Positions 2,663 to 39,547 of a stretch of DNA of 40,000 bases are shown piece by piece. Both the position numbers and the translations under genes were made by a program. Positions within the stretch are counted from its first letter, which is position 1; every line of letters starts with the position of its first letter. The notes under the pieces were generated by a model that ran no database searches, was not told the DNA's origin, and saw nothing but the letters and a program-made list of their open reading frames with translations. Origin of the DNA: Methylophaga aminisulfidivorans (GTDB lineage: Bacteria > Pseudomonadota > Gammaproteobacteria > Nitrosococcales > Methylophagaceae); the NCBI GenBank assembly GCA_011052985.1, contig DRHY01000046.1, positions 4,396 through 44,395 on the forward strand, given 5' to 3'.

Positions 2663-3312
2663 TATTGACCCCTATATCTTCTCGCCCTGATATTCTCTTG
2701 CCCAGCTCTTACCGCGTCAGCAGTTGGAGCGGCCCTGTAGTAATCTGATTTCTCTGTAATGCCTAAAAACTGAACGCCTTGCGGCCTCTGAATTAAGTCA
2801 GAGTTAAATAATGACCACCTTGTTAAATCATTAATTTGACCGGAAAACTCAATACCAAACGTCATATCCTGATTATCGAAAACAGAGATGTATTCAATAT
2901 TTGGAGCTATGATCATCATCTGTTTTAATATGCTTCGGATAGTTGCGTCACCATTGTTTTTAGCTATTTTGGCTTTAATGGCAATACGAAGAAGACCGTC
3001 TGACATAGCTGAATCTGATGCAGCTGTTTTAGCTGCTGCTCTTGAACCATCACCAGCCCTCGCCTGCGTCGATACAACGGCATCAGCTCTTACCTGTTCA
3101 AGAGGAATGTTGGCTATAAATCCGCGATCAATAACGACGATTCTTGCAATGATGTCGAGCTGTTCACCTGCCGCCGTATCAATATCGTATGAATATCTAA
3201 CCGCTTCAGCCGCAGCTTCTATATCACCGCCTAGTTTACGGGCAATATTCATCCAATCGACCAGCTTCGGCTTAGTCCGATATTGACTGTAAATTCTATC
3301 TGGAAGATTCAT
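2662..3312 (-). CDS. Baseplate/tail-fibre adaptor protein (DUF2612-like)
   Basis: ORF track 2662..3348. ATG at 3312 overlaps the baseplate J stop (TAATG) and gives MNLPDRIYSQYRTKPKLVDWM.... The position after baseplate J is typical for this family. Confidence 0.6.
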   Translation of the reverse strand: MNLPDRIYSQYRTKPKLVDWMNIARKLGGDIEAAAEAVRYSYDIDTAAGEQLDIIARIVVIDRGFIANIPLEQVRADAVVSTQARAGDGSRAAAKTAASDSAMSDGLLRIAIKAKIAKNNGDATIRSILKQMMIIAPNIEYISVFDNQDMTFGIEFSGQINDLTRWSLFNSDLIQRPQGVQFLGITEKSDYYRAAPTADAVRAGQENIRARRYRGQ

Positions 3313-4532
3313 TAGGCAATCGTCACACTGATATTTGATGCCGTCCACCGGCTTAACTCGTTATACGCAATCGCCTGATTGGTTGTTGCGCCATTAACTG
3401 TAAGCGCCGATACATAGGCGTTGCCGTAAGGCTCAATCACATGGTTTATTGGTGTATATAAACTGCTATAAGGTACTGACTCGCCTATTTCAAAACCTCT
3501 ATTTCTAAACCCGCATGAGGGAGAAGTCATTGACCCGTTGGCAAACTCAAGAAAGGCTTCTTGTATTAGGTTTTCAATGTCTTCCGGTAATTCATCATTG
3601 TCATCAGTCAGCTCAATAGCGATCACCATATCGACATAAGTTGGTCGATTAAAGAGAATAGGCTGTGTATTTGTTGGATATTCTTCGTCTGTCACGATGA
3701 CGGTTACATCATCACCGACATCAACTAATGGTGGCCCCGGGTTTTTCTTTAAATAAATCGCATAAGCGACATCGTAATCATCACCACCATCTACGATGAC
3801 GGCTATCGAGTGAGCAGGTAAACCGTGAGGATTGAATACTGGATCAACAGTTGCGGAGCCAGTAAAGTTCTCGTAAACCCTAGCACGCCTGACTCCATCC
3901 ACCGCATATAATTCACCAAGCGTTGATCCAACCTGATTTGAGCCTGGTCTAGCAACAGACGCTTTACGCTTTAAACGTAATGATGCATCACTTTCTTTTG
4001 TTGTGCCTGGTGTAGCTGGTGAAGGATTGGTAACGCTCACAACCCCTGACATGGTAGTAATGATTTTAGTCAACGTTCCAGCATCAGCTTGAGTCTGACC
4101 GATAGCGGTACAGGTTGCTGTAGCGGTGGCCTGCCCTGAACCATCCAAGGTATAATCCTGATCAATCACCCATCTTGAACCCGTTGTTTCTGATTCAATA
4201 ATGGCACCGGACAAAACCGTTGCGCCGGGATTGCCACTGAATAACAACTCAACGTCTGAAGGTGTACCCAGTGATCTAGTGGTGAATGTCAGAGCAGAGA
4301 CAATATCTAACTCTTTACCGCGCGCTTTGTTTGGGTCTTTTGAGTTGTAGGCTTGCTGCAGTGTTTCATCGAGTGCAGAGAACGCCTCTGCATCATGAGC
4401 CATTTTTAAACCATCTGGCGTTGAGGGATCGAGATTCCAATCAGCATCAATATCTAAATAAAGTTGACGCTCTTCATCGTACCACTCGTTCTGAGTTTTT
4501 AACTTATAACCCTGAGCTGTCAACTGTGCCAT
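3312..4532 (-). CDS. Baseplate J-like protein
   Basis: 406 aa, placed between a small wedge protein and the fibre adaptor. Sequence blocks are typical of the Baseplate_J family (P2 gpJ / Mu gp47 type). Confidence 0.8.
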   Translation of the reverse strand: MAQLTAQGYKLKTQNEWYDEERQLYLDIDADWNLDPSTPDGLKMAHDAEAFSALDETLQQAYNSKDPNKARGKELDIVSALTFTTRSLGTPSDVELLFSGNPGATVLSGAIIESETTGSRWVIDQDYTLDGSGQATATATCTAIGQTQADAGTLTKIITTMSGVVSVTNPSPATPGTTKESDASLRLKRKASVARPGSNQVGSTLGELYAVDGVRRARVYENFTGSATVDPVFNPHGLPAHSIAVIVDGGDDYDVAYAIYLKKNPGPPLVDVGDDVTVIVTDEEYPTNTQPILFNRPTYVDMVIAIELTDDNDELPEDIENLIQEAFLEFANGSMTSPSCGFRNRGFEIGESVPYSSLYTPINHVIEPYGNAYVSALTVNGATTNQAIAYNELSRWTASNISVTIA

Positions 4533-4872: not shown

Positions 4873-5549
4873 ACTGGTGGCCCCGAGTTTCCTGCGCCTG
4901 GATCAACGCCTGAGTGAACATGATCTTCACCACTAATCGCACCGTCTCCCCACACAATATTTTCAGGTGTAGTGATAAGTCCTTCAGGAGTGATGACAAC
5001 ATTATTAATTGTGACCGTTCCATCTGCTGCCATGCGTATATGTCCTAGTCCGTTTTCAATCTCAATGCTGTCGTCGTTCTTTAGCCATGCAAACTGACTG
5101 CCTGTTTTGTTCCTTAGCCTGATACCGTTGTTCTGAAAATCAGCAAGCACGTTGCCGTTACTGCGAAATCCAGGAATAAAAAACGCATCTTGTAAATCAT
5201 GCATACGTCCTATTGGATTCTGTGCGATGCCGCCTGTGTTTTTCCAGCCATCTGTACACCGCTGAGAGAATACAATCAGCCCTTCACAGCCTTTATTGAT
5301 CTCGTATTCAATGCAGTAATCGCCACCAGGGAAATGCACCGGCACATCAATAATCGGCTTTAGTGCAAACGAAGCACCATTTACATCAACACGCTCAATA
5401 CCTACTTGTATCTGTGCACGCTGCTTGCTACCTGAATCAATCAATGAAATAACGTAGCCAGGAACGCAGGTATAAACGCCCTTCATTAACTCTCTAAAGG
5501 CGGACTCAATCATTCCAGATGAGCTATTCGTGTTAGGTGAATTACTCAT
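4869..5549 (-). CDS. Baseplate central spike protein (phi92 gp138-like / gpV-like)
   Basis: 226 aa. The N-terminal OB-fold-like region (VYTCVPGYVISL...PIIDVPVHFPGG) and the C-terminal HVHSG (HxH) tip motif are typical of spike proteins. The gene follows the hub gene. Confidence 0.65.
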   Translation of the reverse strand: MSNSPNTNSSSGMIESAFRELMKGVYTCVPGYVISLIDSGSKQRAQIQVGIERVDVNGASFALKPIIDVPVHFPGGDYCIEYEINKGCEGLIVFSQRCTDGWKNTGGIAQNPIGRMHDLQDAFFIPGFRSNGNVLADFQNNGIRLRNKTGSQFAWLKNDDSIEIENGLGHIRMAADGTVTINNVVITPEGLITTPENIVWGDGAISGEDHVHSGVDPGAGNSGPPV

Positions 5550-6961
5550 CGTAGATACTTAAGCCCTTGTTTATAGCTGTCATTAACACGCTCAACTGCT
5601 TCGCCGCGAGTAATCGTGTCATCACCGTTTTTATCGAGTCCAGAGTTTTGTGCGTACTCTCTCGCGTACTTGCCGACCTTTTGCCAAAGCACGTATGAAT
5701 CAGGTCGATTAATTCCGGCAGGCCACAACACAGCCATGTAAGCATCGCCTATATTTCTAATGCGGCTTGCATAGTCTTCATAGTAGCGTTCAACAAAATC
5801 AAGCTGCTGTACCGCTGTCATTCTGGATAAGGCCGCTGTGCTGGTGCCTAAATAGCGCGCCGTTGATGGTATAAACTGAATTAAGCCCGTTGCACCTGAT
5901 TTGTTGAATGCTGACGGACTAAATGAGTTGCCCGTTTCAAATGCAATTACCGACATAATCCAGTCAGCATTAATGCCGAGATTGTCAGAAATTTCTCTGA
6001 TCTTGGCCCTAAATTCTTTTGATACTTTCGCGCCCCACACTAATGAGCCCGTTGATTGCTGTGCATCAATACTAGGCGCTTGCTCTGTAGCTGCTACACC
6101 CGGTCTAATCGCATCAATCATTAAATCCCAATCGTTGCCGTGGCTATCGCCTGAGTAAGACATTGAAAGCACGTTATAAACACCATTAGCGGATGAGTCA
6201 CCGGATAGCGGTGCAATAAAGATATTGCCCGTATTAAACGTACTGAACTCAGATTTAACGTTAATTCGGCTAGTTGTTCTTATGTATGGGTTTATACGCA
6301 TATTAACGTTAACCCCAAGACCGTCAGGTCCGCGATTAACTTCTGGCACACCAACCATTCCAGTGTATTGATTAACCTCAAATATCGGTGTTTTACGCGC
6401 TTTACCTTTCCGGGTAATAACCAGCGTTCCGCGCTCATTAACCCATGTGAAGTCGAACTGATATGCCAGATCGTTTAATATTTTTGGTATGTCGCCATCA
6501 GCAATAAAGCCACTGATAAAGACGGGGTTGTCATTAAACTGTGTTTCATCCAGTTCAAGTCGTCTAGGCCATGAATTAGCTAAATCTTTTAATACATCAA
6601 CAATCTTTGTGCCTGCGCCGTATGAGGAATTTGCCGATCCTCTGTCATTGGCTGGAGAACCTGATCGACATAGCATGCGTGTTGCCGTGCTTGCGCCTTC
6701 ACGCTCTGGCAAAACATTGGTAATTATTCCGTTAAAAATCTGATCAACACTGTTTTCATATCCAGCCTTTAGCGTGATAGCTGAACCTTTACTTATCACG
6801 CTGCTCTTAGCTAAGTTATACAGCCTGATATCTGCAAATGATTGTGTATTTTGAGGTGAAACAATCACATCAAAGACAATTCTTAACTGTCTGTCTCTCC
6901 CACCCCTTGCAAACTCAACCCCATCAATATCAAGTTGCCAGCGTCTTAAGTATTGAGACAT
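5546..6961 (-). CDS. Baseplate hub protein with a C-terminal lytic transglycosylase (SLT-like) domain
   Basis: 471 aa. The N-terminus resembles gpD/gp27-type hubs. The C-terminus carries IAFETGNSFSPS...ATGLIQF...AY motifs characteristic of SLT-family muramidases. Confidence 0.75.
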   Translation of the reverse strand: MSQYLRRWQLDIDGVEFARGGRDRQLRIVFDVIVSPQNTQSFADIRLYNLAKSSVISKGSAITLKAGYENSVDQIFNGIITNVLPEREGASTATRMLCRSGSPANDRGSANSSYGAGTKIVDVLKDLANSWPRRLELDETQFNDNPVFISGFIADGDIPKILNDLAYQFDFTWVNERGTLVITRKGKARKTPIFEVNQYTGMVGVPEVNRGPDGLGVNVNMRINPYIRTTSRINVKSEFSTFNTGNIFIAPLSGDSSANGVYNVLSMSYSGDSHGNDWDLMIDAIRPGVAATEQAPSIDAQQSTGSLVWGAKVSKEFRAKIREISDNLGINADWIMSVIAFETGNSFSPSAFNKSGATGLIQFIPSTARYLGTSTAALSRMTAVQQLDFVERYYEDYASRIRNIGDAYMAVLWPAGINRPDSYVLWQKVGKYAREYAQNSGLDKNGDDTITRGEAVERVNDSYKQGLKYLR

Positions 6962-17944: not shown

Positions 17945-19309
17945 TTAAAGCATGTCGCCAAGATTTAATCTAGCAACCAAGTTTCTGCTGTTGGCAATAA
18001 TGAATGAGTCAGCAATATTAGGAGAGTCAATATCTCTCGCTTTTAGCTGCTTTTTACTTTCAACCATTTCCTTGCCTGATGTGCTGTAGGTTTTTTCAAC
18101 AACGGATAATTCTTCTTTTAACTTCTCGAGCAGCTTTTTATCTAAATCGCTTGATATGCTGATCATTTCATCAGCCCTGAACTCTTTTCCGCTAGTAACG
18201 GCTAGATATGTATTTCTAAACCTGTTAGATACAGCCCTCCACGCTTGAGCCTTTAAGTTCTCAAAATGGTCTTTGTTTTTAATCTTTCCGGCTGAGTTGT
18301 AATACTTTTCAGGCTTGGCTACTTTTGCCGCTGCATTGAATTTGAAATGTTTTCGCCACTTAAGAGTATTAAAGTGAGAGCCTGTACCAGCGCCAACACC
18401 TATCGAATCATAGCCAATCTGAGTAGCGCTAAATTGCTTGCCAGTATTAACAACTCGCTTAGCTGATTTATCTAGCTCGTCTTCTCGCCCTTTCCATTCA
18501 TCAAGATGAATTGCTACATAACCATCCATTGTTGTTGTAGCGTTAGTATCATCACCATCATCAGCAACGTCATAACCAACGGTTGCCCCACCTAGCCATT
18601 CACCACTTGACGGTGAAACAGTTAAATGTGCGTCAATTGCCGCCTCAATCCATTTAAGTCTGATTATTGAGTTTTCACTGCTATCCTTGGGCACACCTAG
18701 ATAAACGTGCTGGTATTCTTCGTAGTCGTCTTCTTTTAACTGCTCAATCTCTTTTCTGCTCGTTTCAGATAAAAAAGGATTTTCATCGTAATTTATTAAT
18801 CGAGAAACGCAGTCTTTAGGTGGGTTAACAACAAATCGTTTATGTATGTAATCTGTTTTAAATCGCGGGTTCCAGATAAGCCATATTTCAGAGCCTTCCT
18901 TCCTAATGGTAGGCCGAAGAACTTTCATCTGCTCTTCGGTTAGACCTTCAGCCTCTTCTATCCATAATATGTCAGCACCTTCAACTGATTTAATGTCAGT
19001 AAGGTTTCGCTGAATACCGTAGAACATGAACTCAGAACCTGTAACCAGATTCTTGATCCGGTTATTGGTTATATAAAATCTGTCCTGCAATCCAAATGCA
19101 GCAATCTTGTCTTTCAGTACCGTATAAACAGAATCATCAATCCTGTTCTGAAACTGCCTGACGCATAGAAACTTAACGGTGCAGTAATCTGCAATCCTTA
19201 TAGCGTTGCCAGCGGCATCATGGGACTTACTTGAATCCCTACCACCCCGTAACGCCTTGTATCTTGACTTTGTTGCCCAGAAGTCTCGTAGAGCTGGGTT
19301 CATCAACAT
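17945..19309 (-). CDS. terL: Terminase large subunit (PBSX/Terminase_3-like)
   Basis: Walker A-like LRGGRDSSKS and Walker B-like ILWIEEAE. 454 aa. Confidence 0.85.
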   Translation of the reverse strand: MLMNPALRDFWATKSRYKALRGGRDSSKSHDAAGNAIRIADYCTVKFLCVRQFQNRIDDSVYTVLKDKIAAFGLQDRFYITNNRIKNLVTGSEFMFYGIQRNLTDIKSVEGADILWIEEAEGLTEEQMKVLRPTIRKEGSEIWLIWNPRFKTDYIHKRFVVNPPKDCVSRLINYDENPFLSETSRKEIEQLKEDDYEEYQHVYLGVPKDSSENSIIRLKWIEAAIDAHLTVSPSSGEWLGGATVGYDVADDGDDTNATTTMDGYVAIHLDEWKGREDELDKSAKRVVNTGKQFSATQIGYDSIGVGAGTGSHFNTLKWRKHFKFNAAAKVAKPEKYYNSAGKIKNKDHFENLKAQAWRAVSNRFRNTYLAVTSGKEFRADEMISISSDLDKKLLEKLKEELSVVEKTYSTSGKEMVESKKQLKARDIDSPNIADSFIIANSRNLVARLNLGDML

Positions 19310-19314
19310 AGTTA

Positions 19315-19794
19315 TTATTCTTGCCTGTAAAAGTCATCCAGTGTTCTAGGTTGCTCATTATTTATCTGGGTGTTCTGTTGTACCTGTGACGGTTTAGCAT
19401 GTCGCTCATTAATCTTGTTTGTAACGCTTATTCGATCGACACCCTCAACCAGCGCTTTAAAATCGGATCCGCTTTCGGAAACCTGAAGAAGCTCACCCGC
19501 TTTCCGCATTGCGTTACTAGAAAACCTTTCAATATCTTTAATCAATGCAAGTTGACTGCTTACCTGGAAATCATGATATTCAACTTGCTGTTGATTTAGT
19601 GTTGATTTTTCAGTCTCAACCCTTACTTCATCGGCGATTAGCTGTTGATTGACCCCCTTCTCCCATCCAAGTTTTTTTGCCTTCTTGGATATTGTGCTTC
19701 TATCAATATCAGTCTTGAATGAGATCTCTTGTAAGCTGGCCCCACCTTCAAACATGGCCTGAGCCACATCCCAGCTTTCTTGCGAGATAGCCAT
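19315..19794 (-). CDS. terS: Terminase small subunit
   Basis: 159 aa with an N-terminal HTH (SLQEISFKTDIDRSTISKKAKKLGW), directly upstream of TerL. Confidence 0.6.
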   Translation of the reverse strand: MAISQESWDVAQAMFEGGASLQEISFKTDIDRSTISKKAKKLGWEKGVNQQLIADEVRVETEKSTLNQQQVEYHDFQVSSQLALIKDIERFSSNAMRKAGELLQVSESGSDFKALVEGVDRISVTNKINERHAKPSQVQQNTQINNEQPRTLDDFYRQE

Positions 19795-19915
19795 TTAGGC
19801 CACCGCTTGCAATCTATTCTCTAAACCTTTTTTATTGTGCATTTGGCTTAAGCCCCTCACTGATTTTGGTCACTGACCTTATAGGCTAGCTGGTGTTTCG
19901 TTGTTATCGTCTGAT

Positions 19916-19941
19916 GGAAAAGGCTGAATATTTGCTTCAGC
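19916..19941 (-). terminator. Weak terminator candidate after the CheY-like gene
   Basis: Minus strand reads GCTGAA-GCAAATA-TTCAGC followed by CTTTTCC. Confidence 0.35.
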
Positions 19942-19946
19942 TAGTT

Positions 19947-20306
19947 TTATTCTGTTAGCTCTTTCTCAGCCAGATTAATTCGAGCTATTAGCTCATTAAC
20001 ATTTATCGGCTTAGAAACGAACTGGTTAGCTCCTGCACACATTGCTTCATGCATGTCCTGGTAACTGTCTTTTACTGTAATGATGATGATGGGTATTTTT
20101 ACGCCGTGACTTCTAGCTTCTTTAACGAAATCAACGCCGCTTTTATCTGGCATTTCCCAGTCCATCAATAATAAGTCTGCCGATGCCAAATGATTTGCTG
20201 CTTCGTATGCATTCTCAAACATCTGATACGAATGACCGCACCTCTTCACTGCGATAGCTAACAACTCTCTTGAAAGCTCATCATCATCAACAATTAAAAT
20301 ATTCAT
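19947..20306 (-). CDS. Single-domain response-regulator receiver protein (CheY-like)
   Basis: 119 aa with every receiver hallmark: DDD(7-9), phospho-acceptor Asp in LLLMDWEMPDKSG (compare CheY ISDWNMPNMDG), Thr in IIITVKD, Lys in VSKPI. There is no output domain. Confidence 0.85.
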   Translation of the reverse strand: MNILIVDDDELSRELLAIAVKRCGHSYQMFENAYEAANHLASADLLLMDWEMPDKSGVDFVKEARSHGVKIPIIIITVKDSYQDMHEAMCAGANQFVSKPINVNELIARINLAEKELTE

Positions 20307-20560
20307 TTATCGACCTTGGTTAATAATCTGTCGTCAACCCGATCAAACTTCTTTTCAAGTCTTGCGTCCTGCTCTCGATAGATTTTATGTAAAAGGTCAA
20401 CGTCTTTATCGTGTTTTTCGTGAGTGACTGAGTTTTTATCCAACTCGTTCAGTTTCTTTTTTGCAGCGTTAAGCTCGTTCCATAGATATGTGATAAACAG
20501 ACCTAGAATAATTTTCAGGATATCCCAGAAAACATCCCCTAGCTGTTCCAGTCCTCCCAT
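20303..20560 (-). CDS. Small membrane-anchored coiled-coil protein
   Basis: One N-terminal TM segment (VFWDILKIILGLFITYLW) followed by a charged helical tail. The stop overlaps the CheY-like ATG (ATGA). AGGA lies upstream of the ATG at 20560. Confidence 0.55.
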   Translation of the reverse strand: MGGLEQLGDVFWDILKIILGLFITYLWNELNAAKKKLNELDKNSVTHEKHDKDVDLLHKIYREQDARLEKKFDRVDDRLLTKVDK

Positions 20561-20741
20561 CACATATCCTATTCTCTCTGTATAGCTTCCTGGTCAGTGT
20601 TCACATGATCGAATGATTAAGGTTTCGTATCGAGAGGTGTGCCGGGAAAAATCAAATTATTTTGTATAAATAGCTTGTATTTATCAAATAGTTTTAGTAT
20701 AATCTATTCAACGGTTAAGAAAACAACAACGGAGAATACAA

Positions 20742-20912
20742 ATGAACACAAAACAAAAAAGCACTCTAATCGGGCAGATAGTTCAACAGTTAAGAATTTC
20801 AGCCCAATCTCATAAAGATTATTCATTTGATGAAGGCGACACTTTCTTCTCACTATGCTTTAAGACGGATAGTGAAATAATTAAAATCGCCAAAATTGCA
20901 GGTGTTTTATGA
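20742..20912 (+). CDS. Hypothetical small protein (56 aa)
   Basis: Own reading. GGAG lies 8 nt upstream of the ATG, and the stop overlaps the next ATG (ATGA). Below the 60-aa cutoff of the ORF track. Confidence 0.45.
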   Translation: MNTKQKSTLIGQIVQQLRISAQSHKDYSFDEGDTFFSLCFKTDSEIIKIAKIAGVL

Positions 20913-21073
20913 CCCCATCACAGCAATGCAAATCAGCAGGGCTTAAAAGCCTTGCTGAGCTTTCTTCTTTAACTGATGTATCACAACAAACGTTATTCAA
21001 CTGGCACAAGAACAAGCCGCTATTATTTAAAACGGTGCTTATCGGTGCTGTAGTATTAAAAGCTATGCAATAA
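20909..21073 (+). CDS. Small putative HTH DNA-binding protein (54 aa)
   Basis: Own reading: MTPSQQCKSAGLKSLAELSSLTDVSQQTLFNWHKNKPLLF.... The HTH-like segment is translationally coupled to the previous ORF. Confidence 0.45.
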   Translation: MTPSQQCKSAGLKSLAELSSLTDVSQQTLFNWHKNKPLLFKTVLIGAVVLKAMQ

Positions 21074-21104
21074 AAAAGCCCCGACCGAATTAACGATTGG
21101 GGCT
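21072..21104 (-). terminator. Rho-independent terminator (tR'-like) ending a short leader transcript
   Basis: Minus strand reads AGCCCCAA-(loop)-TCGGGGCT followed by T6, about 110 nt downstream of the candidate late promoter. Confidence 0.65.
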
Positions 21105-21191
21105 TGATTGCTGAAACTTCATAGAGGGATAGGCTCTCTGTTTCGTAACCTTCCTATCCTGATTTGTTGAGCCTTCGCTCACGTTACATTA

Positions 21192-21220
21192 TTTATACCA
21201 CTTTCGTGCAGGTTGTGTAA
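21192..21220 (-). promoter_or_regulatory. Sigma70-type promoter candidate (pR'-like late promoter)
   Basis: Minus strand reads TTACAC-17 nt-TATAAA. It starts 4 nt after the stop of the Q-like gene. Confidence 0.55.
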
Positions 21221-21223: not shown

Positions 21224-21613
21224 TTAATTTACATTATTTAAACAATGCCTTGCGACCTTATCTTTAACCGCATCAATACGCCACTTTACACCGCTTTTGG
21301 ATAGCTTTTCAGCCCACGCTATTTCCTGCATTGATTTACCAAATAGCCAATACTCTCTAACAATTCTTTTGGGGTTTCGGCTTAATCCGTTCACAACCTC
21401 ATAAACTGACTTATCAGTATCATCAAGCTCTAGCTCTCGCGTGTCTTTACCGCGGATACGCTCTTGCTCTGGTGATTGTTTAGGATACCCTCTTACTGGC
21501 AACCCTTTCCTGACCAAAACAGCCCACCGCTTTAGCAAGAAGTCTGCTGCGTCTCGCTTTTGCTTTTGACTGTGCGTTGTTGTGCTTCCATCCGCTCTCA
21601 GTGCATGTATCAT
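21224..21613 (-). CDS. Putative late-gene antiterminator (phage 82 Q / QuuD-like)
   Basis: 129 aa. By-eye blocks shared with E. coli QuuD: LKRWAVL vs LERWGAW, an acidic DD block, and the C-terminal Y..G.S...IA....S......L pattern. Context is a promoter plus terminator immediately downstream. The start is uncertain because of overlap with the upstream ORF. Confidence 0.5.
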   Translation of the reverse strand: MIHALRADGSTTTHSQKQKRDAADFLLKRWAVLVRKGLPVRGYPKQSPEQERIRGKDTRELELDDTDKSVYEVVNGLSRNPKRIVREYWLFGKSMQEIAWAEKLSKSGVKWRIDAVKDKVARHCLNNVN

Positions 21614-22494: not shown

Positions 22495-22715
22495 CAGCCA
22501 CTCCCTCTTATCTGCTTAGCTCGTTGTTCTTGAATGTGTAAGCAAGGTGCACAAATACACGTACCTCCTGTTACGTGCTGCCTTGCGTAAGGAATCTTTA
22601 TGCCACACTCTATACAATCATCAGAGCGTTCACGCTTAACGCCTTTAGCTGCTTGCAATGCCATATTCAGGTTACGTTCTGCTACTTCGTTTGCAACATC
22701 TACTTCATCAGACAT
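22491..22715 (-). CDS. TraR/DksA-family C4 zinc-finger protein
   Basis: CIECGIKIPYARQ...CICAPC four-Cys motif. 74 aa. Confidence 0.7.
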   Translation of the reverse strand: MSDEVDVANEVAERNLNMALQAAKGVKRERSDDCIECGIKIPYARQHVTGGTCICAPCLHIQEQRAKQIRGSGW

Positions 22716-23317
22716 CAGATATCCTCCACCCCGTGCCTATCCGTGAATCCATTAGCCTTTCTAAACTCTTTAACAGCAACAACAGCGTCATCAATACTGT
22801 GGAATTCTCCAAGATGTCTAATTTTTCTATCTACTGAAGAACTTGCCTGCCATTTCTTGCTCTTTTTATTCCATGCAACACCAGAGTAGCCAGATGAGTT
22901 ATCTTTTCTCATTCTGCAGTTTTTAGCGTTCTCAGAGCCGCTAACATTTCTAATATTTTCTATTCTGTTATTGAGCCCATCACCATCTATATGATCAATC
23001 TGATCTGGCTGACTTCCATAAGTGATAACCCACGCCAATCTATGAGCAAGGTATAATTTTCCGTTAACCTTTATTTGCACATATGATGTCCTATGAGACT
23101 TTGCTACCGCTCCAGCCTTTTTACCTGAATACCGCTTATTCCACTCACTAAACATTCTTTCTGACTCAAACATAGATAATGGTCTTTCCTTCCATGAGAA
23201 ATCCCCTGTATCAGGACAATAATCCAGTACAGAAGAAATATATTCAGGATCTATGTGTATAGCTTTTGAATATTTACTTACCACTCCCAGCACTCCTTCT
23301 CTCAAACTCATTAACAA
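22715..23317 (-). CDS. HNH homing-endonuclease-like protein with a C-terminal AP2 domain
   Basis: HRLAWVITYG...IDHIDGDGLNNRIENIR (HNH_3) followed by SGYSGVAWNKKSKKWQA...LGEF (AP2). Paralogue of 25417..26028. Confidence 0.8.
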   Translation of the reverse strand: MLMSLREGVLGVVSKYSKAIHIDPEYISSVLDYCPDTGDFSWKERPLSMFESERMFSEWNKRYSGKKAGAVAKSHRTSYVQIKVNGKLYLAHRLAWVITYGSQPDQIDHIDGDGLNNRIENIRNVSGSENAKNCRMRKDNSSGYSGVAWNKKSKKWQASSSVDRKIRHLGEFHSIDDAVVAVKEFRKANGFTDRHGVEDI

Positions 23318-23444
23318 CTATTTTCTTAACCCAATTCTGTAAATGCTCTGGTACTTCATCTAATAGCTTTTGCCGTTCTTCTTTGGTTTTGCCTTCCAGT
23401 ATTTTTGCGGCCCAGTGGCGCGGCCATAGTTCGCGGCTAACCAA
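23274..23444 (-). CDS. Possible small ORF (TTG start, 56 aa)
   Basis: Own reading: (M)VSRELWPRHWAAKILEGKTKEERQKLLDEVPEHLQNWVKK.... It fills an otherwise unassigned gap, but it overlaps the HNH gene start by 44 nt and uses a non-ATG start. Confidence 0.3.
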   Translation of the reverse strand: MVSRELWPRHWAAKILEGKTKEERQKLLDEVPEHLQNWVKKIVVNEFERRSAGSGK

Positions 23445-23733
23445 CCTTAATCACCCCACTCTCAAAGCGCCTGATATTGGTTAGCATGATGAAGCGCAGA
23501 AACTGAGCGTCTCTATCGTCTTTACTGTGAAAGCCTGACGTTGTGCCCTCTCTGAATAGCTGGTCGCATACATAACAAAATTCAGCCGTGGCCATGTCGT
23601 GGCACTTGATACCTCTGCCTTTGCCGTATTGGTGCTGATATGTGCCATTGAAGTGGGCTGAATAAGCATCAGAGCTTCCACAGCGTATGCATGTAGTGCC
23701 TTTTGATTTGTTGGTTAGTTTGCTCACAACCAA
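23437..23733 (-). CDS. YbcO/DUF1364-like Cys-rich protein (putative nuclease family)
   Basis: CIRCGS...H...GKGRGIKCHD...CYVCDQ pattern as in the E. coli DLP12 YbcO family. Confidence 0.55.
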   Translation of the reverse strand: MVVSKLTNKSKGTTCIRCGSSDAYSAHFNGTYQHQYGKGRGIKCHDMATAEFCYVCDQLFREGTTSGFHSKDDRDAQFLRFIMLTNIRRFESGVIKVG

Positions 23734-23999
23734 ATCCTCACAATTACCGATAAGACCATAATCAAGAAAGACCAGAGAGCAACCCGTCCAATTGCGTCAG
23801 TATTAACGCCAAGGTAATTTCCGTATGCAGTAAACACGAAGGCAATGAAGAATATAAATAGCGAGGTTAAGGCTATTTTTTGCACGATATCTGTCACGAC
23901 AACCACCACAAAATAGGTAACCCAATAGCTGCAATCATGATTAACTGGGCTATGATTAGTGCTGCTAAACTGTCCATTACGATTTAACCTCCCGCCCAT
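23724..23999 (-). CDS. Small hydrophobic membrane protein (start uncertain)
   Basis: The C-terminal 55-60 aa form two hydrophobic segments (ALTSLFIFFIAFVFTAY, VALWSFLIMVLSVIV). Several internal GTG codons could be the true start. Confidence 0.4.
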   Translation of the reverse strand: MGGRLNRNGQFSSTNHSPVNHDCSYWVTYFVVVVVTDIVQKIALTSLFIFFIAFVFTAYGNYLGVNTDAIGRVALWSFLIMVLSVIVRIWL

Positions 24000-25139: not shown

Positions 25140-25417
25140 ACGACTTCCTCATGCGTTAATTTTCTATTGGTGCAGTCGATGAGTTCTTTCTTTTTCATGC
25201 CAGCTAAGCGTCTAGCTATTTGCACATGAGATAGCGCTTTACTGCCGCTTTCTTCTTGACTGATTTCTGCTAACTGCTTAGCCGTTTTCTTGCCGTAACG
25301 ATTAAGCAAATCAAGAATGATGGCTTCGTGGTTTTTAAGTGCTTCTGAGTTAGCAAACTTATAGCCTGCTGCGTGGCTTGAGATTGGATCGTTTGTTTTG
25401 GCTAAAGGAGTGTGCAT
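25124..25417 (-). CDS. Hypothetical protein, possible winged-helix
   Basis: 97-aa ORF in the track, coupled to its neighbours. Confidence 0.45.
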   Translation of the reverse strand: MHTPLAKTNDPISSHAAGYKFANSEALKNHEAIILDLLNRYGKKTAKQLAEISQEESGSKALSHVQIARRLAGMKKKELIDCTNRKLTHEEVVWWAL

Positions 25418-26028
25418 TAGGCTTCTCCTTTTAGAGTCAACCCATGGTTTTCGTGAAAACCAAGCTCTTTTCTCTTCTGATTAACGACTAGGGCGGCTTC
25501 CTTTACATCGTCATAAAGTCCGCAGAAAAACTCCTTGCCATTAAACATGACTCGTGCCCGCCATTTATTTTCCCTTTCATGCCAGCTAACACCCGCATAA
25601 CCGCTCTTATTGGTTTTATATAGCTTCATGTTTCTACAGTTTTGTTTTCTATTTACCTCTCTCAAGTTAGATATTGAGTTATCCGTTGAATCACCGTTGA
25701 TATGATCTATTTCTAGCTCAGGCCACTTTCCATGAGTCATTAACCACGCAACTCTATGAGCATAAAATCGCTTACCTTTTACAGAGAATATTAGGTACGT
25801 TTTATTCTTCTTTTTAAGTTGAGAACCAGCTACTTTTCCAGCACACCTCGAGTTCCAGCTACACCATTGATGTTTATTCTCAAATAAATCCCTATGTCTT
25901 TCTTTCCATGTAAAAACACCGGTATCTTTGTTGTAATCTAAAACCTCGTGGAAAAAACTTACCACCGGCACAAATTCCTGACTGCAGCCTATTTCGTAGA
26001 TTGTTTTGTCTTGGTTAGTTGTCATCAT
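25417..26028 (-). CDS. HNH homing-endonuclease-like protein with a C-terminal AP2 domain (second copy)
   Basis: HRVAWLMTHG...IDHINGDSTDNSISNLR followed by SGYAGVSWHERENKWRA. Collinear with 22715..23317 over the whole length. Confidence 0.8.
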   Translation of the reverse strand: MMTTNQDKTIYEIGCSQEFVPVVSFFHEVLDYNKDTGVFTWKERHRDLFENKHQWCSWNSRCAGKVAGSQLKKKNKTYLIFSVKGKRFYAHRVAWLMTHGKWPELEIDHINGDSTDNSISNLREVNRKQNCRNMKLYKTNKSGYAGVSWHERENKWRARVMFNGKEFFCGLYDDVKEAALVVNQKRKELGFHENHGLTLKGEA

Positions 26029-26453: not shown

Positions 26454-27135
26454 GGGGTGTCTCCCTTTGGCGCTTTTGCGCGATCATCGTGTCGTACTTT
26501 TCACGTAGCTTTTTGCCTGACTGAACCACTGAGGCCCAAAACATATCGCCGCTATACATCCAGTCGATAATGCATATGAGTTGGGCTTCTGTTCGCTCAT
26601 CAATGCGAATAGCCCGCTCAATGTCTTTTACCCAACCTTTCGGTTTGCTCTTGTTGTCAGGATTTTGAGAAAGTATTTTTTTGTGTAGGTAGAGAGCAAC
26701 GCGATCGGCTTCTGTCCCTTCAGGTTCATTTACTGGTTCAGAAGAGTGACTGGTTCTGGGTGCAGAATTTTCACTAGGGGGTGGTGCAATATTTTCACTA
26801 CCCCCATGCAAATCCTGCACTATGGGTGGTGCAGAATTTTCACTAGGGGGTGGTGCAATATTTTCACTACCTTCCAAGGTTATTTTGTAAAAGTTTGAGC
26901 TGTTACCTTTTGGGGTTTTTCTCTCATATTTTTTTAAAAAACCTTGAGCTTCTAATGCACTGATATGAGCGATAACACTACGCTTTGACATTTCACATTG
27001 ATCTGCTATGTGTCTGTACGATGGGTAACAAGTACCATCCTTACCAGCAATATCAGCCATACAAACGAGCACAAGCTTTCTGGTAGCACTTCCTACCTTC
27101 ATATCAAGAACCTGTGCGGTAAGCTTCATACTCAC
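26290..27135 (-). CDS. Replication initiator O-like protein (N-terminal wHTH; contains the origin iterons)
   Basis: N-terminus LVLVCMADIAGKDGTCYPSYRHIADQCEMSKRSVIAHISALEAQGFL. The internal duplicated peptide GSENIAPPPSENSAP is encoded by the iterons. The gene sits upstream of the P-like gene. Confidence 0.7.
   Translation of the reverse strand: MSMKLTAQVLDMKVGSATRKLVLVCMADIAGKDGTCYPSYRHIADQCEMSKRSVIAHISALEAQGFLKKYERKTPKGNSSNFYKITLEGSENIAPPPSENSAPPIVQDLHGGSENIAPPPSENSAPRTSHSSEPVNEPEGTEADRVALYLHKKILSQNPDNKSKPKGWVKDIERAIRIDERTEAQLICIIDWMYSGDMFWASVVQSGKKLREKYDTMIAQKRQRETPHETHQQGNQLRGAAAQSASFHEDLKLFAKGVDSETVQQDAGDIYAPLDKRVSNY
26759..26869. repeat. Four 18-bp iterons (putative origin of replication)
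   Basis: GGTGCAGAATTTTCACTA at 26759 and 26828; GGTGCAATATTTTCACTA at 26783 and 26852. Spacing is 24/45/24 bp. An A/T-rich tract follows (26871-26950). Confidence 0.7.
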
Positions 27136-28007: not shown

Positions 28008-28742
28008 ATGAATAAGAAGAAGCCGTTATCAAAAGAACAACTTGAAGAGTGCGAAAAAGCTCACGCTATTTTTTTGTCGAAAAAAAAGGAGTTGGGTTTA
28101 AGTCAAAGAAAGATTGCGGATAAAGCAGATATATCGGCAACAGCCGTTAATTACTACTTCAAAGGCGTGAACCCTCTAAACCTGCCGTTCGCTTTGGTGT
28201 TGTCTGAAATGCTTGGTGTAAAAATCAGTGAATTCAGCCCAAGATTGGCTGATGAAGCTAGTAAAATATCAAAGGCCACATCTGAAGCATCTAAAGATAA
28301 TTCAAATATAAGTGAGTCACCAATAACACCATCAGAGAGAGAAACGCCTCTTATTTCATGGGTGAATGCTGGGAGTTTTTGCGAATCGCCCGATCAATTT
28401 CATCCTGGTGATGCAGAGGACTGGATACCAGTTAAACCGAGAGGATCAAGCGACAAGATATATGCACTTAAGGTAAAGGGCGATTCAATGACAAGCCCAT
28501 ACCCTAATAGTATTAGCTACCCTAACGGCTGGATTATAATTGTCGATCCTGAGCAAGAGGTGCTTGTTGGTATGTGCGGAATATTCAAGCAGCCATCAGA
28601 TGAACTTGCTACTTTCAAGCAACTGACCAGTGATGCAGGAAAGTTGTATCTAAAGCCATTAAACCCCCAATTCCCCATGATAGAGGTAGAAGAAGGTATG
28701 CGCGTCTGTGGGAGAGTGATCGGGCTTTACTTGGATGTGTAG
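28008..28742 (+). CDS. cI: CI-type repressor (XRE HTH plus S24 LexA-like autopeptidase)
   Basis: N-terminal HTH (LSQRKIADKADISATAVNYYFKG). The C-terminus has the Ser nucleophile in KGDSM and Lys in LKPLN. Divergent from cro. Confidence 0.9.
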   Translation: MNKKKPLSKEQLEECEKAHAIFLSKKKELGLSQRKIADKADISATAVNYYFKGVNPLNLPFALVLSEMLGVKISEFSPRLADEASKISKATSEASKDNSNISESPITPSERETPLISWVNAGSFCESPDQFHPGDAEDWIPVKPRGSSDKIYALKVKGDSMTSPYPNSISYPNGWIIIVDPEQEVLVGMCGIFKQPSDELATFKQLTSDAGKLYLKPLNPQFPMIEVEEGMRVCGRVIGLYLDV

Positions 28743-28799
28743 TGCTGAAAGTCTGGGAAGGTAAGGATTTGTAGAGTTAAACCGAATAAGGGATTAATT

Positions 28800-29744
28800 A
28801 TGAGAGTAAGTTATTTTGCCCACTGTTTGAGAAATATTGAGTCAGGGGAAAACGTCAAGTTCGACCTTGGTTCGTTTGCTTCAGCATTCTGTAAATTTGA
28901 AAACCCTATATTCAAAAATACATTCACCCATAACGGGGAAAACGTCTATTTACTTCACAACTCAGGTGATGTTTACCTCTTTATAATGACAAAAAGCAAC
29001 GAAGTAATTAGGAAGATCAACACTGATAATCTGAGCGTTAGTGAGATTAACGACTTGCTAGCTAAAGATGAGCAGCTAGGTTTTGCATCTTATATCCTGA
29101 TAAAAGAAAATCATTTCGGTTATTCCTCGACTTTAATGGCGCCAAGAATAGATTGTTTTAATGATTTTATTGAATTTCTTTTGTCTAAAATTGGTGTAAA
29201 AGATTACCAATTCCGTACGCAAGCATTGCTCTATCAGGCAACAAAGGCAGACGTCTTATCGATGAATTATTTAGGTAGGACCACAATTGATTTAGCGAAA
29301 CACAGTAATGTCGTTAAAAACTTTTTATCTGAATTAAATGTGACAGATGCTGATATACTAGAACTTGATGGAATTGAGATAAAAATTAAGCCGAAACAGC
29401 GAAAAAACATCAAGCCTGTTGTTGATAAGGTTATTCAGAACCTGCCAGATGATGGTGTTGAAAAAATGATCGTTAAAGCTAAGCATCAGGATGCTGGTGA
29501 GGCACTTAAGGATCTATATTTAATTGGTCAAGGCTCAATATCTGACTCTATAGATAAAAGTAAAGAGGCAAAAATTCCAGATCATTTGGAATCTAAGCGT
29601 AAACAAAATAAAATTGTTGATGAGAGGCTTGCGGAGTATATAGAACATGAACAGCTCACAGAAAAGAACATTGAAGTTGTTCAACGTTTTAGTGATGCAG
29701 AGTCCTGGTCCGCTCGTTTTCCTATGCTATCTAACACTGATTAA
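28800..29744 (+). CDS. RexA-like exclusion protein
   Basis: By-eye collinear blocks with lambda RexA: YLFIMTKSNEVIRKIN / FLFTKTNDKSLVQKIN; LAKDEQLGFASY / LADDESLGFPSF; YLGRTTIDL / FIGRTTVKV; IKIKPKQRKNIKPV / IVIKPKFKRDIKKV. Directly downstream of cI. Confidence 0.75.
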   Translation: MRVSYFAHCLRNIESGENVKFDLGSFASAFCKFENPIFKNTFTHNGENVYLLHNSGDVYLFIMTKSNEVIRKINTDNLSVSEINDLLAKDEQLGFASYILIKENHFGYSSTLMAPRIDCFNDFIEFLLSKIGVKDYQFRTQALLYQATKADVLSMNYLGRTTIDLAKHSNVVKNFLSELNVTDADILELDGIEIKIKPKQRKNIKPVVDKVIQNLPDDGVEKMIVKAKHQDAGEALKDLYLIGQGSISDSIDKSKEAKIPDHLESKRKQNKIVDERLAEYIEHEQLTEKNIEVVQRFSDAESWSARFPMLSNTD

Positions 29745-30117
29745 GTATTTCCCTCAATACTCGATTAGCATTTATCCTCAAAAGCAAACTGTAGCTGTGA
29801 TTTTGGCAACATTTGCTTTTACTATGCTGGGCTTTCTTGCTGCAGTAATTGCTTTAATGTTTACCGCAACAAAATCACAAGCTTTTAATATGTATAATAA
29901 GCGAGGATATTTAGAAACATTCTTTTTCGTTTACTACATGGTTATTATTTCTTTAATAATCACATTCTTGCTATCTATTTTCTCATTAGCTGTCAGTTTT
30001 GAGCCATGGTTGCTGAGGGTTGCTGTTATGTCGACAATAAACAACCTAGTCCAGATCGTTCTTGTAACGTTTATCATAGTTAATATGGTGGACAAGGCCA
30101 TATCCAAAAATGAATAA
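29647..30117 (+). CDS. RexB-like polytopic membrane protein
   Basis: About 4 hydrophobic segments. The block FTMLGFLAAVIALMFTATKSQAFNMYNKRGYLETFFFVYY compares with lambda RexB GTMIAILIAALTFLIGSRTRRLAKIREYGYMTSVVIVYA. The start is uncertain (29647 or 29695) and overlaps the end of the rexA-like gene. Confidence 0.7.
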   Translation: MNSSQKRTLKLFNVLVMQSPGPLVFLCYLTLIKYFPQYSISIYPQKQTVAVILATFAFTMLGFLAAVIALMFTATKSQAFNMYNKRGYLETFFFVYYMVIISLIITFLLSIFSLAVSFEPWLLRVAVMSTINNLVQIVLVTFIIVNMVDKAISKNE

Positions 30118-30289: not shown

Positions 30290-30592
30290 TTATCCATGCT
30301 CCCACCAGGCTAAAGATCTAAACACGAAGAACAAACCAAGGCCAGCAAAAAATAATACTTTGCCTATTACTTCCGTTGTACTTCCCGTAACCGCGCTAAT
30401 CCACATCAACATCCCCACTATGAGAACGATCACAGCCATCAATGTATAGGCCTTTATTGGTTTACCTGTTTCTTGGGTTGTAACTCTCTGTTCTTCTTTC
30501 ATCTGCGTAATGGGCGCGCCGCACTTAACGCACGCACTAGCTTTATCAGAAACTTCAGCACCGCACTCGCCACATTTAATTAACGCCATATC
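30290..30592 (-). CDS. Zinc-ribbon membrane protein (100 aa from the internal ATG)
   Basis: MALIKCGECGAEV...CVKCGAPI (CxxC...CxxC) followed by two hydrophobic segments. AAGGGA lies upstream of the ATG at 30592. The gene is opposite in strand to both flanking operons. Confidence 0.6.
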   Translation of the reverse strand, partial: DMALIKCGECGAEVSDKASACVKCGAPITQMKEEQRVTTQETGKPIKAYTLMAVIVLIVGMLMWISAVTGSTTEVIGKVLFFAGLGLFFVFRSLAWWEHG

Positions 30593-30672
30593 TAATCCCT
30601 TAATTCGAAACTGAACCAACTTTACCACTATATAAACCAAACACAAAAATTAACCACTCCCACAAAATAAAT

Positions 30673-38184: not shown

Positions 38185-38438
38185 GCCTAATCATTCAAAA
38201 CGAAATAGCAAGCGAATTTCTCACTGACAAGGAAGTGATTGAGCTTACTGGGTTTGAGCAGCGTGGAAAGCAAATTGACTGGCTTATCAATAGACAATGG
38301 GCTTTTAGTGTTTCCGGGAAAAATGAAATTAAAATAAGTCGTTGGTACTCACGCATCAAAATGTCAGGTATAAATATCAATAACGATATCCATGTCAGTG
38401 GTGGCGATCAACTACCTAACTTTAATAAAGCATCATGA
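38181..38438 (+). CDS. DUF4224-like protein, putative excisionase/recombination directionality factor
   Basis: FLTDKEVIELTGFEQRGKQIDWL motif. Immediately upstream of the integrase and overlapping it. Confidence 0.55.
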   Translation: MSLIIQNEIASEFLTDKEVIELTGFEQRGKQIDWLINRQWAFSVSGKNEIKISRWYSRIKMSGININNDIHVSGGDQLPNFNKAS

Positions 38439-39547
38439 CACCTAAACCAAAAACAAAGCATCCAGAGCTACCACCTCGCATGGTTAAGCGCCAATGGAAA
38501 ACGCGTAAGGGGGTGAGTGTAGCTTATTACTACGAGCATCCACGCGATGAGGATGGTAAGCGAGTGCTTGAGTCGTTAGGCACTGACTTTGCCAAGGCCA
38601 AGCAAAAATGGGGAGAGATTGAAGGCGTTAAGGTAGATAAGTATTCAGGCGATACGCTTGGCGCTATCTATCATAAATACATGAAGTGGGCAGAAAACAA
38701 AACGCTTTCCGGGTTATCGCCTAGAACGATTAAAGACCGCAAAAACTATTGGACTCATTTGGAGCCTGTCTTTGCTCATCTGCATATTGATGCATTTAAG
38801 CCAGAGTGGTTTTTGCAGTATTTTGAATCGAGATCATCACAAGTCGGCGCTAAAAAAGAAATCAAGTTTATGTCGGTTATCTTTAACTGGGCCAAGCTTC
38901 GCGGCTTAAGCACGATAGAAAATCCGATCACAGGCACAACCAGGCAATACAAAATTAAAGAACATCGGGATATCCTTATCACTCATACTGAATATAAGGC
39001 TGTACATGACAAGTCAAGGCCGTTTATACAAGACTTAATGGATTTACTGTACATGTCAGGCGCTAGGCCAGATGAGGCGATTAGCTTTAGATTTGCGGAT
39101 GATAAAGGTCATGAGCTTGTCTATCGGATGGGTAAAACCAGAAAGATTAAACGAGTGCAGATTGGGTCTGACTTACGCAAGTTAATTAATAAGCGTAAAA
39201 AGCTGCTGAAGTCATCCAGAGTAACAATGATTAACCCTACTATTCTATTTGATGATAAAGGCCGAAAGCTGACGCTTGGTGGCACAATAAAATACTGGTT
39301 TGGAATAGCGCGTGATGATGCAGAACTAGAAAGACGCTGGCAGCTAAAGGATATACGTCCGTATGCCGCAACTGAGCGATATAGAAAAGAAGGTATTGAG
39401 GCAACACGTAAACTGCTAGGGCACTCAACAGAAGCGCAAACGCGCAGTTACATCAGGGACTATTTAGGGGAGGAAACAGAGTCGCACGAAATGCAAAACA
39501 ATGGCATTATGGCGAAAGTAAAACGTGAGAATGGCGAAAGTAGTTAG
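38435..39547 (+). CDS. int: Tyrosine integrase
   Basis: 370 aa. Catalytic-region motifs: SGARPDEAISF, LKDIRPYAAT, LLGHSTEAQTRSYIRDY. Adjacent to the tRNA 3' end. Confidence 0.9.
   Translation: MTPKPKTKHPELPPRMVKRQWKTRKGVSVAYYYEHPRDEDGKRVLESLGTDFAKAKQKWGEIEGVKVDKYSGDTLGAIYHKYMKWAENKTLSGLSPRTIKDRKNYWTHLEPVFAHLHIDAFKPEWFLQYFESRSSQVGAKKEIKFMSVIFNWAKLRGLSTIENPITGTTRQYKIKEHRDILITHTEYKAVHDKSRPFIQDLMDLLYMSGARPDEAISFRFADDKGHELVYRMGKTRKIKRVQIGSDLRKLINKRKKLLKSSRVTMINPTILFDDKGRKLTLGGTIKYWFGIARDDAELERRWQLKDIRPYAATERYRKEGIEATRKLLGHSTEAQTRSYIRDYLGEETESHEMQNNGIMAKVKRENGESS

Follow-up and report, generated by a model that had tools for sequence, protein, structure and literature searches.

A membrane-helix protein and an orphan receiver in the pinholin slot of a lambdoid Methylophaga phage: a candidate lysis-control module

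We have analysed a stretch of 40,000 nucleotides (nt) from Methylophaga aminisulfidivorans (assembly GCA_011052985.1, contig DRHY01000046.1, positions 4,396 to 44,395; hereafter the window), which holds most of a lambdoid temperate myophage, attributed in public records to a metagenome-assembled genome of this species and to marine-sediment metagenomes, with the attention centred on two overlapping genes at the head of its late operon. The first of them encodes a small single-pass membrane protein of 86 amino acids (aa) and the second a stand-alone two-component receiver of 119 aa. Comparison with related phages showed that this gene pair took the place of a pinholin gene. The pair is a rare, strictly paired module of a membrane helix and an orphan receiver that moves between unrelated marine phages, a conclusion that stands even if the function discussed here does not. 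As to that function, we favour a role in lysis control, and give an even chance to the view that the small protein works as a holin/pinholin-like or releasin-like trigger of an endolysin of the signal-anchor-release (SAR) type, with the receiver as its phospho-switchable regulator. The exchange of a pinholin for the pair suggests, without proving it, that the phage ties its burst time to the two-component signalling of the host.

The replacement is documented by a group of sister contigs (L115–L118) whose gene for the large terminase subunit (terL) is 90% identical to that of the window, the region of the small-subunit gene terS (window 19203–19816) showing 93% DNA identity to L115. The gene order in L115/L116 and in L117 is late regulator, terminator/leader, pinholin, one extra gene and terS, and the pinholin, of 98–114 aa, belongs to the P21-S type (PF04971, 32.9 bits where the cut-off is 26; phrog_20, 5.8e-13). 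In L115, a homing-endonuclease-like gene (2913–3515; phrog_559/9084) lies between the pinholin gene and terS, and the window does not contain it. The pair of the window sits exactly between the two stumps of such a pinholin gene (Table 1). At the 5′ side, the pinholin start (20569–20604) has become a dead-end upstream open reading frame (ORF) that reads MNTDQEAIQRE and stops; at the 3′ side, residues 91–114 of the L115 pinholin were recovered by tblastn in the non-coding remnant with 83% identity (E=7e-9). With stumps on both flanks, the pair must have replaced the core of the pinholin gene, approximately codons 12–90, including both transmembrane (TM) helices. Homology to L115 ends ~10 nt upstream of the start codons. 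A ribosome-binding site thus arrived with the cassette itself, and the Shine-Dalgarno AGGA of the small ORF follows the 5′ remnant. No pinholin homologue was detected in the window or on L109, a contig that prolongs it, either by phmmer with the sister pinholin on the window or by nucleotide and protein comparison.

The same leader precedes the pair in two further contigs, L014 and L015. The latter combines leader, pair and 3′ stump, and in the former the pair is followed by a different gene. Comparison of the window with both contigs (dS 0.27–0.73) gave ratios of nonsynonymous to synonymous substitution (dN/dS) of 0.07–0.09 for the small protein and 0.03–0.05 for the receiver, and such low values in lineages sharing the replacement point to strong purifying selection on both genes since the swap.

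The ORF list, Pfam and the AlphaFold2 models bear out the preliminary description of the locus as two ORFs coupled through an ATGA shared by the stop codon of the small ORF and the start codon of the receiver, that is, a receiver translationally coupled to a small membrane-anchored protein. Both ORFs lie on the minus strand, and the small protein is modelled as a single helix. Public gene calls start the small ORF at the ATG in position 20560. The placement of the pair between a late leader of the Q type and terS, likewise proposed at first sight, is also correct, and so is the impression that the pair lies outside annotated systems, since Pfam, PHROG functions, NCBIfam and PADLOC offer no family for the small protein. 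A survey of related loci (window/L003, L014, L015, L001, L009, L006/L007, L008, L011 and L012/L013), which the preliminary description had called for, established that both genes are conserved together: the small gene is directly followed by the receiver gene at every locus, with an overlap of 1–4 nt or, in L011, a gap of 2 nt. Overall, eight phage backbones, representing four terminase types, contain the pair, and in each of them it opens the late operon and lies just upstream of terS/terL, with at most one gene intervening. The packaging sets behind it are Terminase_3 with Portal_3 and a Mu-F-like gene, GpA terminase with Portal_2, Terminase_4 with TerL_ATPase and an HK97-type portal, and a P22-like set in L001, a variety which indicates that the pair travels independently of the packaging genes. 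The distance from the receiver to the next late gene is only 0–3 nt in L006, L008, L011 and L014. The gene two positions upstream of the pair in L006 is Q-like (phrog_79, 1.9e-8), and in L011 a strong intrinsic terminator stands immediately ahead of the pair. The pair occurs on contigs of the Joint Genome Institute (JGI); metagenome scans with a family-specific DNA pattern and with the small-protein profile found none in a collection evidently devoid of the pair-bearing JGI contigs.

A SAR endolysin exported by the Sec pathway requires a timed release from the membrane, which comes either from a pinholin, through collapse of the membrane potential, or, in phage Mu, from the releasin gp25. The 40-kb window encodes no endolysin. 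The contig L109, reached through a window protein near the left edge, continues beyond the window and carries the lysis genes after those of the tail fibre (Table 1). Its endolysin is a Phage_lysozyme protein of 177 aa and of the SAR type, with the N-terminus MNKKLIASIIGAGSLIMAS / MNKKLIASIIGAGSLIMASQPL. In MNKKLIASIIGAGSLIMASQPL, two basic residues are followed by a weakly hydrophobic segment rich in Gly, Ala and Ser, as is the signature of SAR domains, though this segment might instead be a cleavable signal peptide; the hydrophobic segment of the sister-phage endolysins joins the catalytic domain directly (…LALWEGG), as occurs in SAR endolysins. An Rz-like inner-membrane spanin (i-spanin) of 155 aa (L109 5155–5622) contains an embedded lipoprotein outer-membrane spanin (o-spanin) of 64 aa (…VVSGC…; 5381–5575). 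No holin was found beside the endolysin and spanin genes of L109, and the pinholin-bearing sisters show the same arrangement, a homologous SAR endolysin (70–74% identity) with Rz/Rz1 at the late region's distal end, without a holin beside them; in all, a SAR-type endolysin with Rz/Rz1 was seen on L109, L140 and L142. Endolysin and spanins thus lie about 20 kb (>20 kb) from the pair, where the late region ends, and the gene order of the sisters places the holin slot of this phage group first in the late operon and its endolysin and spanins last. Both the slot of a P21-type pinholin and its partnership with SAR endolysin and spanins are therefore found again with the pair. After the spanins, a hexapeptide-repeat acyltransferase is encoded on the opposite strand (L109 5576–6133, minus strand; L111 5997–6512), probably a phage-borne cargo, for example for modification of surface polysaccharides, rather than host DNA.

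No membrane protein other than the small protein was found in the late operon. Its N-terminus is short and acidic and is followed by a single TM helix and then by a charged helical tail of ~59 aa that ends in TKVDK, and the structure model consists of one continuous helix from residue 4 to 83. Its family comprises 12 members among 1.84e9 representative proteins. In 11 of 11 members the N-terminus has a net charge of −1/−2 and the flank behind the TM helix one of +1/+2, a bias from which, by the positive-inside rule, an N-out/C-in topology is predicted; the long helix, of 59–95 aa across the family, would accordingly be cytoplasmic and share its compartment with the receiver. With a net charge of +1 to +3, the tail is mildly basic and in this complementary to the acidic receiver. 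All 11 members end in (T/N)K(A/V)DK, a motif whose codons also provide the Shine-Dalgarno and start region of the receiver gene. An own role in phosphotransfer, as a mini-kinase or histidine phosphotransfer (Hpt) protein, was rejected, since the homologues share no invariant His.

With respect to known lysis proteins, the small protein shows the descriptors of the holin class, being small, with at least one transmembrane domain (TMD) and a charged hydrophilic C-terminus, and its leader and terminator, shared with the sister pinholin, suggest late expression. Membership of the P21-type pinholins (PF04971) was discarded, as there is no Pfam or PHROG holin match and one TM helix is present instead of two. 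Nor is it an i-spanin, given the opposite topology predicted from its charges, a cytoplasmic receiver as partner and the genuine Rz/Rz1 elsewhere in the phage. We hence file it under neither pinholins, DUF2730/releasins nor spanins, and regard it as a candidate for a protein that works like a holin or releasin. The preliminary description would have been refuted, in part, by a small protein matching a known holin or spanin family in a common lysis module; no such family match exists, but the slot is indeed a holin slot in which a pinholin was replaced.

The receiver is a bona fide member of its superfamily. Pfam Response_reg (PF00072) covers residues 3–111 over a profile of 111 positions (E=1.1e-24; 87.2 bits against a cut-off of 30.2), and the AlphaFold2 model (mean predicted local distance difference test, pLDDT, 95.2) has the canonical (beta-alpha)5 fold with five strands and five helices. 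Residues D7/D8, D49 (in DWEMP), T77, K99 and F96 align with D12/D13, D57, T87, K109 and Y106 of Escherichia coli CheY and are unchanged across eight phage homologues, and the K-P cis-peptide motif is present. The winged-helix DNA-binding domain (Trans_reg_C) is absent, as the protein stops at alpha5 after 119 aa. The early characterization as a complete, single-domain orphan receiver thus holds, with Response_reg matched end to end, the active site intact and no output domain. Without such a domain, the receiver must act through protein–protein contacts. It is acidic, with a net charge of −9 in the window phage and of −4 to −9 across the family.

The label of CheY type given in the preliminary description does not survive, since the nearest relatives by both sequence and fold are receivers of the OmpR/PhoB family. 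The best matches in structure, NCBIfam and fold searches were the receiver halves of PhoB, PhoP, PmrA, CpxR and KdpE. In the profile search against solved structures PhoB reached 4.5e-22, as opposed to about 1e-16 to 1e-15 for E. coli CheY, ~6 orders weaker, and in the fold search the TM-scores were 0.91–0.94 for the PhoP, PhoB and KdpE receivers, with PhoP at 0.94. NCBIfam PhoP/PhoB models matched through the receiver half alone, far below their full-length cut-offs. The beta5-alpha5 segment GA(D/N)(D/Q)F(M/V)SKP..(E/D)L..RI presents what we take to be a resemblance to the OmpR/PhoB signature. The window contains no che or fli genes, and this context together with the PhoB/PhoP-type best matches rules out a chemotaxis CheY proper. 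The receiver is consequently neither a CheY orthologue nor a complete OmpR/PhoB regulator.

Close relatives of the receiver are limited to five clusters at 54–59% identity, after which identity drops to generic regulators at ≤36%. Among 50,697 phage records, tblastn with the receiver found generic regulators only (≤37% identity, many of them bacterial contamination) and megablast with the pair region found no match. A receiver-profile scan of species genome contigs returned generic response regulators, the best at 38% identity among the matches listed, a result that leaves the absence of the receiver from cultured genomes unproven. Cellular receivers of ~168 aa, considered as a hint of a fusion corresponding to the pair, were dismissed because their extensions are not membrane segments. 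As first noted, no histidine kinase or Hpt protein was seen among the annotated ORFs of the window, whose right arm was not exhaustively profiled.

From these features a mechanism can be proposed. The small protein would insert N-out/C-in and oligomerize through its long cytoplasmic helix, and would then either make small depolarizing lesions, in the manner of a class-III-like pinholin, or act as a releasin similar to Mu gp25; either route would detach the SAR endolysin from the membrane as the late phase closes. Translational coupling might set a fixed ratio of receiver to membrane protein, and the acidic receiver would bind the mildly basic cytoplasmic helix, so that the phosphorylation state of D49, set by acetyl-phosphate or by a histidine kinase of the host, would decide between delay and licensing of the trigger. 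The receiver would in this way constitute an antiholin-like timer reading the physiology of the host. This complete scheme of a phosphorylation-gated lysis clock, in which a host-charged receiver binds a novel single-pass holin or releasin and times SAR-endolysin release according to host state, is put forward tentatively, and we consider it somewhat more likely to be wrong than right. In a sharper version, which is possible, the tethered acidic receiver itself neutralizes the basic cytoplasmic N-terminus of the endolysin (MNKK...) and thereby frees the enzyme, in which case the two proteins together would correspond to the anionic cytoplasmic domain that Mu gp25 carries.

Given a slot of holin type and a pinholin displaced by the pair, a role in lysis control is better supported than the motor mimicry or generic phosphate sink contemplated in the preliminary description. 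The most serious competitor, albeit an unlikely one in our judgement, is that the pair represents cargo for host takeover, a tethered receiver that, late in infection, drains phosphate from host OmpR/PhoB-type pathways or heterodimerizes with their members, and that destroyed the pinholin by landing in it, so that lysis would depend on slow spontaneous release of the SAR endolysin or on an unrecognized holin. An OmpR/PhoB-type receiver with an intact active site and a partial alpha4-beta5-alpha5 signature (GADDF.SKP...EL..RI) could pair with host regulators, and SAR endolysins do lyse late without a holin, as seen in Mu, which takes ~3 h in the absence of gp25 (PMC9239132).

Several observations count in favour of such cargo or, more generally, against lysis control. 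The slot also houses a homing endonuclease (L115), an HNH gene (L011), a metallopeptidase (L014) and a minor tail protein (L006), and as a hot spot for recombination and unrelated cargo it could have received the pair, and lost the pinholin, by accident. The ORF with three TMDs at 23724–23999 is a weak alternative candidate for a holin. The pattern of a SAR endolysin without holin comes from one backbone; the lysis genes of the other pair-bearing backbones lie beyond the sequence reached, and L148, of the L001 backbone, carries only head and tail genes and no lysis genes in the ~10 kb downstream of the pair. The small protein matches nothing in Pfam, PHROG, DUF2730, the holin families, NCBIfam, PADLOC or solved structures. 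No phosphodonor for the receiver was identified, and the binding of the receiver to the helix of the small protein is a prediction.

Other data speak against host-takeover cargo. To lose the lysis timer would be costly, yet the replacement persists in three diverged contigs with dN/dS <0.1. The pair is first in the late operon in all backbones, a moment too late for a useful reprogramming of host transcription. Such cargo would also leave without explanation the strict coupling of the receiver to a membrane helix of holin/releasin-like topology. Furthermore, the ORF with three TMDs lies in the early region and has neither a charged C-terminal tail nor a family match.

The remaining explanations fare worse. 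A role in late transcription or packaging, for example in phospho-dependent partnership with the late activator or the small terminase, would fit the constant position between late regulator and terS, a region where Mu has a small winged-helix gene, gp26, between releasin and terS. It is nonetheless improbable: the neighbouring terS/terL genes are of four unrelated types, making a specific terminase partnership unlikely, the receiver has no DNA-binding domain, the membrane anchor of its partner would have no obvious role, and the sister phages manage without the pair. We judge it very improbable that the pair is a prophage moron for defence or superinfection exclusion expressed in the lysogen, for although it joins a small membrane protein to a signalling domain in a stretch of lower GC (0.377 for 20001–21000), is followed by a weak hairpin and belongs to a phage whose cI-RexA-RexB-like region shows that it carries exclusion genes, PADLOC gave no match for window proteins and only noise for one homologue, promoter-like sites did not exceed shuffled expectation and included no convincing promoter belonging to the pair, the late terminator lies upstream of it and the leader in use is that of the pinholin, and in other phages the receiver adjoins late structural genes.

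The same evidence overturns the moron-like organisation suggested by the preliminary description, inasmuch as the hairpin/T-run (19923–19941) falls within the 3′ leftover of the pinholin, the leader is that of the pinholin and elsewhere 0–3 nt separate the receiver from the next late gene. A moron with its own promoter and terminator was accordingly discarded, late expression being itself deduced from sequence.

Known lysis systems offer partial parallels to the proposed lysis-control module. One is the S21 pinholin/R21 endolysin system of phage 21 (PF04971): the pair occupies the slot and has the expression signals of the sister-phage pinholin of this type, and the downstream partners, a T4-lysozyme-type SAR endolysin and Rz/Rz1, agree as well; a release trigger is presumably required in both cases. 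S21 shares no sequence similarity with the pair, and has two TM helices and a short charged tail in contrast to one TM helix and a long cytoplasmic helix, as well as a dual-start antiholin isoform instead of a separate receiver-domain regulator.

Another is the releasin gp25 of Mu (DUF2730), a membrane-tethered cytoplasmic protein of 99 aa with N-out/C-in topology whose gene is located just before terS (Chamblee et al. 2022, PMC9239132). Like the small protein, gp25 is a small type I single-pass protein with almost no periplasmic part and a helical cytoplasmic domain of 60–90 aa; its gene likewise lies just upstream of terS with an ATGA overlap with one small gene, and it operates with a SAR endolysin and spanins and no holin. 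On the other hand, there is no DUF2730 match (none of 11 family members at E<=5), and hhalign of the small protein with Mu gp25 yielded a probability of 0.7%, which also weighs against kinship, a single-sequence template being a weak test. The endolysin gene is within five genes in Mu and >20 kb away in the window phage, and Mu is transposable whereas the window phage is lambdoid (cI/Cro, O-like replication gene, integrase). The cytoplasmic domain of gp25 is anionic, unlike the mildly basic one of the 86-aa protein, for which the separate receiver would contribute the acidity.

In N4, gp63 has been reported as a class III pinholin with a single TMD; it has a cytoplasmic regulatory region and cooperates with a SAR endolysin (PMC12642591). 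The pairs t/rI of T4, lydA/lydB of P1 and gp63/gp62 of N4 resemble the proposed module in joining a membrane trigger to a dedicated regulator, expressed together with it, by which lysis time is set or postponed, but none of these regulators is a receiver domain and none shows homology to the window pair. The ‘Receiver domain’ of N4 is a region of gp63 and its name a coincidence, not a two-component receiver (PMC12642591). The Yersinia protein RoeA was set aside as not comparable, since it consists of a winged helix-turn-helix only.

Among cellular signalling proteins, PhoB, PhoP, CpxR and KdpE share with the phage receiver the canonical fold and the full phosphorylation site, and differ by the winged-helix domain that it lacks. 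Of the single-domain receivers CheY, Spo0F, DivK and CpdR, the first three are like the window receiver in having no output domain. The window receiver is nevertheless distinguished from cellular receivers by being phage-borne, without chemotaxis or phosphorelay context or a cognate kinase, at ≤~36% identity to those found, and strictly paired with a membrane helix. The LytSR-LrgAB/CidAB system of Staphylococcus also links two-component signalling to holin/antiholin-like membrane proteins, a link that includes acetyl-phosphate (PMC4830213). There a cognate kinase and a DNA-binding regulator of the LytTR type exert the control, which is transcriptional and chromosomal, in contrast to the post-translational action that the pair would exert in a phage.

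What appears to be new is a proposed lysis-timing module in which both the membrane component and the type of regulator are novel, and full-text literature searches retrieved no account in which a phage holin, antiholin or releasin has a two-component receiver as partner. When to lyse is the principal life-history decision of the lytic cycle, and the lysis timers known to us are self-contained holin/antiholin clocks or sensors of superinfection. If timing gated by phosphorylation were true, it would amount to a truly novel principle of phage regulation and be the first post-translational link of two-component or acetyl-phosphate signalling to phage lysis. The small protein would then found a new family of lysis-trigger membrane proteins and, as a releasin, would give this poorly understood concept another case of independent origin, whose soluble partner can be separated and studied biochemically. 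The natural exchange of pinholin and pair on backbones otherwise ~90% identical represents a ready-made genetic experiment.

The expression signals upstream of the pair are also conserved. The window, L115, L014 and L015 share an extended −10-like element and a leader that ends in a strong intrinsic terminator, with small hairpins in between (Table 1). This leader has the PR′/tR′ arrangement of lambda, which fits the Q-dependent late leader of the preliminary description, with the −10-like element as the putative late promoter. Homologues of the 129-aa regulator encoded upstream of it were found ahead of the slot in L001, L115 and L117. The 417-nt insertion that directly follows the terminator lies outside the conserved module and might be a small regulatory or immunity-like cassette through which late transcription reads. 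On the other side of the pair, a portal gene and a Mu-F-like gene come after terL.

Table 1. Position of the gene pair, pinholin remnants and related features (window coordinates unless a contig is named)
Feature	Position	Strand	Evidence or remark
Putative late-gene regulator, 129 aa, sigma-70 region-4-like C-terminus	21224–21613	−	weak NCBIfam sigma-70 matches, 1e-4
Extended −10-like element TGGTATAAA, candidate late promoter, PR′-like	21192–21200	−	kept in L115, L014
Intrinsic terminator, tR′-like, GC-rich hairpin (21077–21105) and U6	21071–21105	−	RNA fold; kept in L115, L014, L015
Lineage-specific 417-nt insertion	20650–21066	+ (ORFs)	absent from L115, L014, L015, where the leader directly follows the terminator
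Insertion ORFs antisense to the late operon: 56 aa; 54 aa, helix-turn-helix	20742–20912; 20909–21073	+	54-aa ORF: phrog_409 transcriptional regulator, 2.9e-7
Pinholin leader and first-11-codon remnant	20569–20649	−	window 20649–20570 against L115:2504–2582, 79% identity
Small single-pass membrane protein gene	20303–20563	−	86 aa from GTG; 85 aa from ATG at 20560
Stand-alone receiver gene	19947–20306	−	119 aa; phospho-acceptor D49; Pfam Response_reg
Non-coding pinholin 3′ remnant, last 24 codons and ~28 nt downstream	19851–19951	−	blastn, 91% to L115:2822–2922
Terminase small subunit (terS), first packaging gene after the pair	19315–19794	−	phrog_1206, 1.6e-5
Terminase large subunit (terL), bait for sister phages	17945–19309	−	Pfam Terminase_3, 3.6e-37
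ORF with three TMDs, 91 aa	23724–23999	−	in the 244-nt gap between NinB and an HNH-like gene; missed by most gene callers
Lysis genes just left of the window	L109 4625–5622		endolysin, i-spanin, o-spanin after tail-fibre genes

The remaining gene content of the phage includes cI/Cro, RexA, a RexB-like protein, an O-like replication gene, NinB, a DksA-like protein, a late regulator of sigma/Q-like type and an integrase. The immunity region (28008–30117) is lambda-like, with a cI-type repressor (HTH_3 and Peptidase_S24), RexA (PF15969) and a RexB-like ORF with several TM helices. Within the O-like initiator gene, three copies of a 44-nt repeat (26735–26871; spacings of 24 and 69 nt) are likely origin iterons. 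The early-right operon contains two paralogous HNH endonucleases of ~200 aa (phrog_99; 22715–23317 and 25417–26028, minus strand), and an HNH-like ORF of 98 aa was found at 23437–23733. No att repeat occurs within the window, as fits a location of the other prophage end beyond position 1, and the integrase gene adjoins tRNA-Arg(tct) and tRNA-Pro(tgg) (38435–39763). Finally, a gene at 30290–30646, encoding a protein of 118 aa with an N-terminal zinc ribbon and two TM helices, is the lone minus-strand gene in the plus-strand early-left arm, a moron-like placement.

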